Source: an uncultured Nitrospiraceae bacterium (GTDB lineage Bacteria > Nitrospirota > Thermodesulfovibrionia > Thermodesulfovibrionales > SM23-35). Taken from it: a stretch of 64,000 bases of DNA. Shown here piece after piece: positions 32,986 to 37,517 of this stretch. How positions within the stretch are numbered: position 1 is the first letter of the stretch; every line of letters begins with the position of its first letter. The position numbers and the translations under genes were made by a program. The notes under the pieces were generated by a model. The model saw nothing but the letters and a program-made list of their open reading frames with translations, searched no databases and was not told the DNA's origin. The DNA is taken from NCBI GenBank assembly GCA_963727775.1, contig CAVSHB010000003.1:526002-590001 (forward strand). The letters run 5' to 3'.

Positions 32986-34329
32986 TCATTTCCCTCTCAT
33001 TCTGCTTATCAGTTTGGCTATTCCGCCGATAAGGCTTTTTGGCCTGAGTTTAACCTCTATCGCATCGATATCTTCCATGACGCCGTCTCTGTCCACGATG
33101 AAAGAGGCTGATTTTGCAATGGACAATACCTGGCTGGGATAGACACTTCTATGTCCCGTCATCAGAAAGCTTATGACACACGCTATTGCCGCATAAGGAG
33201 CCACCTGAGCTCCGAAAAGCTCCACAGCCATTAAACTTGCAGAAATCGGCGTATTCGCTGCACCTGCGAGGAGACTGACCATTCCTATTGCAGAAAATAT
33301 GTTTGGATCAAGCCCGAAGATCCTGCCAAAGAAGCTGCCGGAAGTAGATCCTATAAAAAAGATAGGCGTCACTATGCCACCGCTTCCGCCGAAATTAAGG
33401 GTAATCGAAGTAAATACCATTTTATAGAGGAAGGCTAACGCGGGAACCTCTCGACCTTCAAGGGCGCCTTTAATTGTATCCAGTCCAAGGCCTAAGTATT
33501 GTGGAGACAGCAGAAACGTCAGCAATACAAGGACACCACCTCCCAATATTCCCTTATATGGCATCCATATTTTTATTCTCCTGCTCAGATTCATAGAATA
33601 CTTCAAAATTTCAATGAACAGGAAAGAATAGAGTCCGAAAAATATGCCGCTTAAGCACACCTTAATAAAGAAAAGGCTACTAAAGACAGGGACAAAGTTT
33701 AGTTGGTGGTAGAAATAAGTTATTCCCAAACCGGAAGAAACTTGATAGCCCACAATACCTGCAACAAATGCTGGGAGTAGCACTTCGTACATCAAGCCGC
33801 CAACAAAGAGTACTTCAACGCCGAAAATGGCACCTGCGATAGGTGTCCCGAATACAGTGGCAAAACCCGCACTGATGCCGCATATAACCAGCTTCTTGCG
33901 GTCTCTGTTCCCAAACCTGAACAGGTCAGCAAATGCCGATGCAAGCCCTGCGCCTATTTGTGCACAAGGACCCTCCTTCCCTGCGGACCCACCAAGTGCA
34001 ATTGTTATAATCGTCGCTATAAGCTTTATCGGGACAACAAGCGGATTTATTTTCCCGGAACGTTTATGTACCGCTTCTATTACTTTTTCCGTACCATGTC
34101 CTTCTGCTTCGGGGGCAAGATATTTTACAATTAGACTGCTAAGGAATAACGCTGCTGGAAGCAAGATAAAATAAAATTTATAGCCGCTCGTAAATGTTAT
34201 ACCGAGACCTAATAGTTTCAGAAATATTGCTGTTGATAAGCCAACAATAACCCCTATACACGACGCCAGGATTACCCACTTGCTGACGCTGATAAATAGT
34301 ATCGAACCTTCTATAACTCTTCTTTTCAT
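32986..34329 (-). CDS. CLC-family chloride channel/transporter
   Basis: GHGTE, GSAGKEGP, FGTPIAG and GGIVTP motifs; many TM helices. Confidence 0.9.
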   Translation of the reverse strand: MKRRVIEGSILFISVSKWVILASCIGVIVGLSTAIFLKLLGLGITFTSGYKFYFILLPAALFLSSLIVKYLAPEAEGHGTEKVIEAVHKRSGKINPLVVPIKLIATIITIALGGSAGKEGPCAQIGAGLASAFADLFRFGNRDRKKLVICGISAGFATVFGTPIAGAIFGVEVLFVGGLMYEVLLPAFVAGIVGYQVSSGLGITYFYHQLNFVPVFSSLFFIKVCLSGIFFGLYSFLFIEILKYSMNLSRRIKIWMPYKGILGGGVLVLLTFLLSPQYLGLGLDTIKGALEGREVPALAFLYKMVFTSITLNFGGSGGIVTPIFFIGSTSGSFFGRIFGLDPNIFSAIGMVSLLAGAANTPISASLMAVELFGAQVAPYAAIACVISFLMTGHRSVYPSQVLSIAKSASFIVDRDGVMEDIDAIEVKLRPKSLIGGIAKLISRMRGK

Positions 34330-34719: not shown

Positions 34720-34895
34720 ATGGCAAGAATATTACGTTGCTCTGACATGGGAGTTAAATGCGACTGGGTCAGTCGTGCAGCAACAGACGATGAGCTTTTA
34801 AGTTAGCAACAAAACATGCTGCGGATGTACACGGGATGAAAGAGATTCCAAAGGAGGTATGGGCTAAAGCGAAGGCAGTTATTAAAGATGAATAG
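34720..34895 (+). pseudogene. DUF1059-like small metal-binding protein, frameshifted (not in ORF track)
   Basis: MARILRCSDMGVKCDW..DELL, then in the shifted frame ATKHAADVHGMKEIP..KAVIKDE. Confidence 0.65.
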
Positions 34896-35074: not shown

Positions 35075-35569
35075 ATGAAAAAAGCATTTTTATTGATTGC
35101 GATTACCATGTTCCTGACTTTCTCGTTAGCAATTAACTTTGCCCAGGCCGCAGACCAGATGATGGAAAAAGGCGGCATGATGAAAGATGGCATGATGGGT
35201 AAAGACATGATGATGGAAAAAGGACAGATGATGATGGACAAAGGCAAGATGATGATGGACAAGGGCAGTATGATGAAAGACGGCAAGATGGATAAGGATG
35301 CGATGATGAAGCAAGGCGAAATGATGATGGAAGATGGCGAAATGATGACGAAGGAAAGCGGCATGATGATGGAAAACAAGAAAATGAAGCGGCACGGAAA
35401 GATGATGAAGAAGAGCGGGGACATGATGATGAAAGACGGAACTATGATGAAGGAAGGCAAGATGGATAAGAATATGATGATGAAAGAAGGTGGCATGATG
35501 ATGAAACAAGGCGAGATGATGATGAAGCAAGGCCAGAAGATGATGGATAAAGCCCAAAAGATGAAATAA
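35075..35569 (+). CDS. Exported methionine-rich repeat protein
   Basis: Signal peptide (..FAQA); mature part roughly one-third Met in MMMxKGx-type repeats; AAGGAG RBS. Confidence 0.88.
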   Translation: MKKAFLLIAITMFLTFSLAINFAQAADQMMEKGGMMKDGMMGKDMMMEKGQMMMDKGKMMMDKGSMMKDGKMDKDAMMKQGEMMMEDGEMMTKESGMMMENKKMKRHGKMMKKSGDMMMKDGTMMKEGKMDKNMMMKEGGMMMKQGEMMMKQGQKMMDKAQKMK

Positions 35570-36012: not shown

Positions 36013-36570
36013 ATGAAATACTCGACCTTATTACGAGCGCTCTTGCTTTCCGGACTCATTACCGGTGGTATCGTCTTTTCAGGCTGCATAGGAAAGTCGG
36101 ATGGGGCTCACAGCGTATCAGCGCCGGGTCCGATCAAGGTCTATTCTGCAGAAAAAGGGGGCTACGTCATGAGCGAAACTGATAATAAGAGCAATGAAGA
36201 ATGGAAAAAACTGCTGACACCCGAACAGTATCACATCCTGCGGGAAAAGGGAACCGAGCGGGCATTTTCCGGAAAATACGCAGACTTCCACGAGCATGGT
36301 ATTTATCGTTGCGCGGCCTGCGAGCTAGACCTGTTCAGGTCGGAAGACAAATTTGAGTCCGGTACCGGATGGCCAAGCTTCACGGCACCTATCGCCGCGG
36401 AGAACATTATCACCAAACCGGACAATACTCTTTTCAGTCATCGTACAGAAGTACTTTGCCATCGCTGCGGCAGCCATCTCGGCCATGTTTTTGACGATGG
36501 TCCCAAACCGACAGGGCTGCGCTACTGCATGAATTCGGCTGCCCTGCAATTCGTGGCAACCAAGAAATGA
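36013..36570 (+). CDS. msrB: Peptide-methionine (R)-S-oxide reductase, with lipoprotein-like signal
   Basis: [26 protein letters not shown] and RYCMNS motifs; FSGC lipobox-like. Confidence 0.96.
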
Positions 36571-36594: not shown

Positions 36595-37203
36595 ATGAAA
36601 ATGCTAATTACAGCGATGTTGGGACTTTCAGTCATCCTCATCGCAACTACCACAGTCATGGCTGCACCTAATCTTAAAAAGGCAACTTTTGCGGGAGGTT
36701 GCTTCTGGTGTATGGAGCACCCCTTCGATGAGATTCCCGGCGTGGTTTCGGTAACATCCGGCTACACTGGCGGGCAGAAAAAGAACCCTACCTACGAAGA
36801 GGTTTCGGCCGGAGGAACGGGGCACGCCGAGTCGGTCCAGGTCGTCTATGACCCGGAACGCGTCAGTTATGAGAAGCTCCTAAATGTCTTTTGGCACAAC
36901 ATCGACCCGACCGCTAAGGACCGGCAGTTCTGTGATTCCGGGCATCAGTATCGAAGTGCTATTTTTTATCATTCTGAGGAACAGCACGAGCAGGCTCTGC
37001 AGTCGAAGGCACTATTGGAAAAGAACAAGCCCTTCAAAGAACCAATCGTAACCGAGATTGTTCAGGCCACCGAGTTCTACCCGGCAGAGGATTACCACCA
37101 ACACTATTACAAGAAGAACCCGATCCGATACAAATACTACCGTTTTAGATGTGGTCGTGACCAAAGACTTAAGGAGCTGTGGGGCAATGCTGCAGGGCAT
37201 TGA
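36595..37203 (+). CDS. msrA: Peptide-methionine (S)-S-oxide reductase, with signal peptide
   Basis: FAGGCFWC, GHAESVQV.YDP and AEDYHQ motifs. Confidence 0.96.
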   Translation: MKMLITAMLGLSVILIATTTVMAAPNLKKATFAGGCFWCMEHPFDEIPGVVSVTSGYTGGQKKNPTYEEVSAGGTGHAESVQVVYDPERVSYEKLLNVFWHNIDPTAKDRQFCDSGHQYRSAIFYHSEEQHEQALQSKALLEKNKPFKEPIVTEIVQATEFYPAEDYHQHYYKKNPIRYKYYRFRCGRDQRLKELWGNAAGH

Positions 37204-37217
37204 TGGGATAGAATGAT

Positions 37218-37517
37218 ATGAAGAACCGAGTAACTCAGTCTTTGACTCTTTTTGTTTTGATGCTGTTTCTCTTTTCAGGTTATGGGGTTTCTCTCGCACA
37301 AGATGCTAAAACATCCGAGGTTATGTTCTATGTGAAATGATTTGACGTTGGCAAGGAGGCCCTGGAAGGGCTGAAGGGAGTGAAGAGAGTTGAAAAAGGC
37401 TTTCGCAACTTTAAAGAGATAAATACTGTTTATTATGATCCAGCAGTGATTACGATTGAAGAAATGGAAATAGCCTTAAAGAAGGCAACTACTTACCTGG
37501 AACAGTTAAGTAGTTAA
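37218..37517 (+). CDS. Putative exported selenoprotein (99 aa, TGA at codon 41), MsrA/HMA-like fold; not in ORF track
   Basis: Signal peptide, then EVMFYVK-U-FDVGKEALEGLKGVKRVEKGF..VYYDPAVITIEEME; SECIS-like hairpin at 37359-37371. Confidence 0.72.

Follow-up and report, generated by a model that had tools for sequence, protein, structure and literature searches.

The window analysed here, a stretch of 64,000 nucleotides from an uncultured Nitrospiraceae bacterium (assembly GCA_963727775.1, contig CAVSHB010000003.1, positions 526,002 to 590,001), contains a small reading frame directly downstream of msrA that is predicted to encode an exported protein and is interrupted by a single in-frame TGA. 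An initial annotation, made from the letters of the window, had proposed that this TGA specifies selenocysteine (Sec), and comparison with homologues now makes it very likely that the product of this ‘mini-gene’ is a selenoprotein. It follows a gene for a methionine-rich protein, msrB and msrA, in that order, and all four genes have export-like N-termini. The features of the locus are as follows.

35075-35569, + strand: gene for a methionine-rich protein (51 of 164 residues are Met) with a signal-like N-terminus
36013-36570, + strand: msrB, with a lipoprotein-like N-terminus (TIGR00357, 187 bits)
36595-37203, + strand: msrA, with a GCFWC motif and a signal-like N-terminal stretch (TIGR00401, 214 bits)
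37218-37517, + strand: mini-gene for a probable selenoprotein, 99 codons with Sec at codon 41; predicted mature domain of ~72 amino acids, βαββαβ
37218-37298, + strand: predicted signal peptide, residues 1-27, from sequence, hydropathy and the hydrophobic N-termini of homologues, with probable cleavage after S-L-A
37338-37340, + strand: in-frame TGA, probable Sec41 at the start of helix 1, from alignments and the codons of homologues
37358-37372, + strand: hairpin resembling a bacterial selenocysteine insertion sequence (SECIS), with a GGA loop at 37364-37366, 23 nt past the TGA
37416-37418, + strand: codon for Glu67, near-invariant (156 of 158 family sequences)
37499-37500, + strand: GG, one G fewer than the GGG of the paralogous copy, a 1-nt deletion that alters the last residues

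The mini-gene and its copies

The msrA stop codon occupies 37201-37203 and the mini-gene ATG lies 14 nt downstream, at 37218; the frame then contains one TGA, at codon 41, followed by 58 sense codons and a TAA at 37515-37517, so the coordinates given in the initial annotation hold. The N-terminus begins with basic residues, continues with a hydrophobic stretch (11-residue hydropathy maximum of 3.0) and has S-L-A just ahead of Q28. These features, together with the hydrophobic N-termini of homologous proteins, suggest that residues 1-27 form a signal peptide and that the protein is exported.

The same genome contains a second msrB-msrA-mini-gene cassette (G000:C1:809432-811040) that is ~95% identical and has an intact mini-gene, and a third msrB-msrA cassette (L132:5487-6767; G000:C1 ~659.5-660.8 kb) that lacks the mini-gene and in which the start of msrB is fused to the 5′ end of a methionine-rich gene. 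The second cassette is followed by a gene for a MerA/RclA-like flavoprotein (L036:8775-10226) that carries an in-frame TAG mid-gene. Within the window, a small gene upstream of the methionine-rich gene (~34720-34895, + strand), which we take to be DUF1059-like, is broken by a frameshift, and a gene for a ClC-type chloride channel (32986-34329, − strand), of which there are two near-copies elsewhere in the genome, is divergent from the methionine-rich and msr genes.

Evidence for selenocysteine at codon 41

A scan of GTDB genomes identified 35 loci in Nitrospirota and Desulfobacterota-type genomes, and in the 34 that cover codon 41 this codon is TGA in 33, CGA in one and TGG in none, one locus having a Cys paralogue as well; two of the 33 TGA loci are frameshifted further downstream and one stops at a contig edge. 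When these loci are pooled with a first phylum sample, the resulting 66 distinct DNA copies comprise 46 with TGA, 15 with TGT or TGC, one with CGA and four unresolved fragments, so both kinds of homologue for which the initial annotation had suggested a search, with TGA or with Cys, exist. Ten further TGA copies, one TGT copy, one homologue with Ser and one fragment came from another sample of the phylum (15 of 401 genomes). The TGA is retained across two phyla at ~50-90% protein identity, conservation is in frame on both sides of it, and the region past it is under purifying selection, with a median ratio of nonsynonymous to synonymous change (dN/dS) of 0.12 over the 28 pairs, of 43, for which dS could be measured.

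The initial annotation had regarded Trp, Arg or Gly in homologues as the mark of a simple nonsense mutation, and protein databases do have Trp at this position in 66 of 121 rows, but none of the 66 DNA copies contains TGG. Because one such protein (P0025) is a letter-for-letter read-through of the TGA in locus L020, the Trp homologues are likely an artefact of gene calling, as demonstrated for that protein. The 55-amino-acid fragments in databases that begin after the TGA, labelled ‘copper chaperone CopZ’ or hypothetical, are a second annotation artefact, in keeping with the earlier remark that standard callers miss the gene. It might be argued that the TGA is indeed a nonsense mutation, or that the 55-residue piece is the real product, as databases call that piece and as decay is seen nearby in the genome (the frameshifted gene at ~34720-34895 and the flavoprotein gene after the second cassette, with its in-frame TAG). 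Either proposal is highly improbable in view of the retention of TGA in two phyla, the Cys homologues, the in-frame conservation on both sides and a SECIS signature that tracks the TGA, and the 55-residue piece would lack strand 1 of the predicted fold.

The window hairpin, whose loop the initial annotation had placed about 24 nt past the TGA, has a 6-bp stem, a GGA loop 23 nt past the TGA and a folding energy of −7.8 kcal/mol, and it satisfies the published constraints on bacterial SECIS elements (a loop of 3-9 nt containing G, a stem of 4-16 bp, 16-37 nt from the UGA, ≤ −7.5 kcal/mol; PMC13188914). Among TGA genes the hairpin codons are frozen (GCC for 45 of 45 Ala, CTG in 45 of 46, GGG in 43 of 46) while nearby Gly and Val codons vary, and the stem with its GG loop is present in 40 of 46 TGA genes versus 0 of 15 Cys genes, in which the synonymous positions of the hairpin are free to change. 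The codon that starts at the position of the second loop G encodes an amino acid with G-initial codons in 90 of 90 Trp proteins versus 26 of 70 Cys proteins. Judged from these comparisons, the hairpin behaves as a Sec signal that tracks the TGA.

Several observations qualify this evidence. The hairpin region of the window folds no better than shuffled sequences (z = −0.74; 40 of 200 shuffles are as good), and true covariation in the hairpin is scarce among relatives that are not independent. In addition, one G is missing from the window copy at 37499-37500, so that the family ending TYLGTVK becomes TYLEQLSS there; this deletion, which alters the last residues of strand 4, may reflect decay by mutation or an assembly error. 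Finally, 7 of 11,998 random TGAs in the genome pass a filter of a hairpin at ≤ −7.5 kcal/mol with a GG loop plus 58 open codons, so this single sequence is no more than suggestive, and it is the comparative data that settle the matter.

The genome also encodes the machinery for which the initial annotation had asked: selA, two selB, two TGA-containing selD and tRNA-Sec. The two selB genes, the two Sec-containing selD genes and TsoB, a rhodanese-DsbD selenoprotein, account for G000:C3:368296, C1:1564881, C1:1546371, C4:188434 and C4:184829, and TsoB adjoins a VTT gene and one selD. Across genomes, selA scores over the cut-off in 26 of 30 that bear the family (27 counting a broken copy) versus 192 of 401 in the phylum sample; of three family-bearing genomes without it, G322 has selB and tRNA-Sec, G218 has tRNA-Sec, and G151 (86% complete) has neither over the cut-off. 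No matches to the mini-protein were found in five families without selA (133 genomes), and Cys versions are found in selA-positive genomes too.

The conservation of the TGA, the Cys homologues, the SECIS signature confined to TGA genes, the purifying selection past the TGA and the full Sec machinery all support a product with Sec at codon 41, a position very probably decoded by SelB through the hairpin 23 nt downstream, a step with strong computational support. This family comprises 259 clusters (50% identity) at E ≤ 0.001 and 113 at E ≤ 1e-10. No family in NCBIfam 20.0 (June 2026) or Pfam scores over its cut-off for the mini-protein, the 119-family selenoprotein table of a 2026 catalogue has no entry like it (PMC13188914), and literature searches found no description of such a family. 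It is therefore an apparently uncatalogued addition to the bacterial selenoproteome, truncated or misread in databases.

Genes that accompany the mini-gene

The neighbours of the mini-gene suggest a function for its product. At a limit of 5 kb, 36 of the 46 TGA copies and 14 of the 15 Cys copies (50 of 61) have an msrA, msrB or msrP-like gene nearby, counts that include many copies fetched with a flank of only ~1.6 kb. At a limit of 1.5 kb the counts are 29 and 14, respectively; ~0.4% of the window's own genome is as near to an msr gene. Of the 15 Cys copies, 14 immediately precede an msrA or msrAB gene, and ten family loci carry msrP as their sole msr gene. Other recurring neighbours of the 46 TGA copies encode histidine kinases (17), YHS (seleno)proteins (14), methionine-rich proteins (12), MsrP-like proteins (12), MerA/RclA-like flavoproteins (9), VTT membrane proteins (8) and cytochrome b (5). 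Among the msrP, msrAB and methionine-rich genes of one locus (L073; G087:C1:216000-235999) the family is represented four times, twice with TGA, once with Cys and once by a broken copy.

By analogy with MrpX (PMC4436054), the methionine-rich protein of the window (35075-35569) is likely a sacrificial oxidant sink. It is probable that the mini-protein belongs to a module for envelope methionine repair and oxidant defence, which would give selenium a part in protecting envelope methionine in Nitrospirota and Desulfobacterota. The extracytoplasmic role in methionine-sulfoxide redox reactions that the initial annotation assigned to the protein is upheld by this neighbourhood alone; the mini-protein is not a complete MsrA, as it lacks the substrate pocket.

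Histidine kinases are encoded within 5 kb of 17 of 46 TGA and 6 of 15 Cys copies, in many cases immediately upstream, and the recurrent upstream ones have a conserved periplasmic domain in common; they could indicate that the mini-protein is a redox-sensing accessory of an envelope two-component system. This role is improbable, since most loci, and both mini-gene copies of the window's genome, have no such kinase nearby, and operon regulation would explain the co-location equally well. One such sensor kinase (L004:1115-2593) and ten relatives lie upstream of the Msr module and have a methionine-rich motif in the conserved periplasmic domain, which makes this type of kinase a candidate oxidant sensor.

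Predicted fold, possible chemistry and relation to known families

The 72-residue domain is predicted to adopt a βαββαβ fold (predicted local distance difference test score of 94.6) that resembles HMA/MerP and the N-terminal half of MsrA to about the same degree, as the ‘MsrA/HMA-like’ label of the initial annotation implied. Profile comparison bears out the alignment, previously made by eye, of Sec41 with the catalytic Cys of MsrA, and an ungapped extension of the MerP alignment also places Sec41 on the second Cys of the HMA CxxC motif, so the reactive residue sits at a position common to both in a fold that lies between HMA chaperones and MsrA. Glu67 has the same spacing to a YDP motif as Glu94 of MsrA and is also present in 15 of 29 HMA domains; with Sec41 aligned, the catalytic Cys/Sec and Glu94 of MsrA both have counterparts at the sequence level. 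The motif around Sec is x-U/C-Y/F-D (Asp in 150 of 158) in place of the G-C/U-F-W of MsrA, the insert bearing Tyr82, one of two possible proton donors of MsrA, is absent, and Tyr93 (142 of 158) appears one residue off the other, Tyr134, judged from the ends of alignment ranges. Mature segments contain a single Cys or Sec in 158 of 158 sequences, with no second, resolving Cys.

The window protein does not match the TIGR00401 or Pfam PMSR (PF01625) profiles, and PF01625 detects 1 of 71 family members, at E 0.035. Complete MsrA identity was thus rejected, as the substrate pocket is missing and profile cut-offs are not reached. Separate from the mini-gene, full-length Sec-MsrA genes (G-U-F-W-G) occur in Desulfobacterota-type genomes (L133, L135, L139), at least two with export-like N-termini.

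The HMA domains that lead the two fold searches and the sequence searches of the PDB raise the possibility of an exported metal binder like MerP or CopZ, in which the single Sec with Asp43, Glu67 and Asn69 would hold Cu(I), Ag(I) or Hg(II) and either limit metal-driven oxidation or pass the metal on. All 71 aligned members weakly match NF041115, and MerA/RclA-like flavoproteins and VTT proteins are near 9 and 8 of 46 TGA copies, respectively. Such a role is nevertheless unlikely: the protein has one Cys/Sec and no GMxCxxC loop, its NF041115 scores are 26-27 bits against a cut-off of 95 when ordinary HMA domains reach ~90, and a crude motif scan found a heavy-metal ATPase or HMA motif in 1 of 369 neighbouring open reading frames, the neighbours being methionine-repair genes. 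PF00403 (HMA) detects 1 of 71 family members, at E 0.017, and has no match in the window's own genome. All 12 genomes sampled from the same taxonomic family lack a match as well, in contrast to 8 of 8 sampled from other families of the order, which have one. The metal loop of MerP-like proteins encoded at four other loci (L088, L090, L093, L094) contains one in-frame TGA and would read UxxT or UxxA in three of them and CxxU in the fourth; these proteins, whose N-termini are signal-like, may be additional HMA-fold selenoproteins.

We tentatively favour the view that the mini-protein is an exported one-Sec redox protein with an MsrA-type Sec/Glu centre that captures either small oxidants or exposed sulfoxides. 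The reasons are its neighbourhood, a lone nucleophile where MsrA has its catalytic Cys, the missing pocket and the ten loci with msrP only. After export through the signal peptide, Sec41 would lie at the N-terminus of helix 1, the site of the MsrA catalytic Cys, and Glu67 would start the neighbouring strand, like Glu94 of MsrA. The selenolate may then attack HOCl, chloramine, peroxide or an exposed sulfoxide, free of the stereospecific pocket of MsrA, to give a selenenic acid. Because there is no second Cys, re-reduction would have to occur in trans, whether through a thiol on a partner, through dimerisation or through a DsbD-type relay, for which the TsoB of this genome is a candidate.

It is also possible, if rather doubtful, that the same selenoprotein serves as an electron relay which docks on exported MsrA or MsrB and re-reduces their catalytic Cys, in the slot of the thioredoxin-like domain of Neisseria PilB. 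Exported Msr enzymes are reported to require a periplasmic reductant (PMC6210582). The position of 14 of 15 Cys copies directly upstream of msrA or msrAB fits such a role, as does the failure of any thioredoxin-like or CcdA/DsbD family to recur in three or more loci. Helices 1 and 2 carry conserved lysines (K46 in 114 of 158, K88 in 134 of 158), and the docking faces of HMA proteins carry lysines. Against a relay stand the absence of a resolving Cys from all 158 sequences, the msrB-msrA cassette of this genome without a mini-gene and the ten loci with msrP only, as MsrP receives its electrons from a cytochrome, not from a thiol. The family also bears on how exported MsrA and MsrB are recharged where the operon has no thioredoxin partner.

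A bolder and unlikely proposal is that the protein is a putative minimal methionine-sulfoxide reductase, in which Sec and the MsrA glutamate suffice in an HMA-sized domain of 72 residues; it would then be a living link, with MsrA and HMA derived from one domain whose helix-1 Cys came to serve either metal or sulfoxide. With its small size and natural Cys versions, the mini-protein offers a convenient test of the MsrA core acting alone.

Compared with known families, MsrA, including Sec-MsrA (PF01625, TIGR00401; for example PDB 4lwj), has ~155-180 residues versus 72 here, and the mini-protein has Asp in place of Trp53 of the methyl pocket and lacks the Tyr82 insert, the C-terminal half and the resolving Cys. 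With the HMA proteins MerP and CopZ (PF00403) it has in common the βαββαβ fold and a size of ~70 residues, but neither the CxxC of their GMxCxxC loop nor the UxxU of the metal-binding selenoprotein NF041115; it scores far below the cut-offs of these families and is almost never found near metal-resistance genes. The C-terminal part of NF041383 (VPGUxxT thioredoxin-like (seleno)protein type 2; profile positions 140-202) matches both the mini-protein, at 31.6 bits against a cut-off of 275, and MsrA; however, the thioredoxin-like domain and VPGU motif of that family are absent from the mini-protein, which stood alone in the searches made, itself weak evidence of a difference.

At the level of the module, the closest likeness is to the hypochlorite-scavenging system of Azospira suillum, in which a periplasmic methionine-rich protein, MrpX, is paired with the methionine-sulfoxide reductase YedY (MsrP), and whose abstract names no small Sec or Cys protein (PMC4436054). 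Methionine-rich reading frames and MsrP-like genes, each near 12 of 46 TGA copies, recall this pairing. Where the Azospira system, as summarised there, has YedY and a sigma factor, exported MsrA and MsrB and a two-component system replace or join them in the loci that carry the mini-gene.
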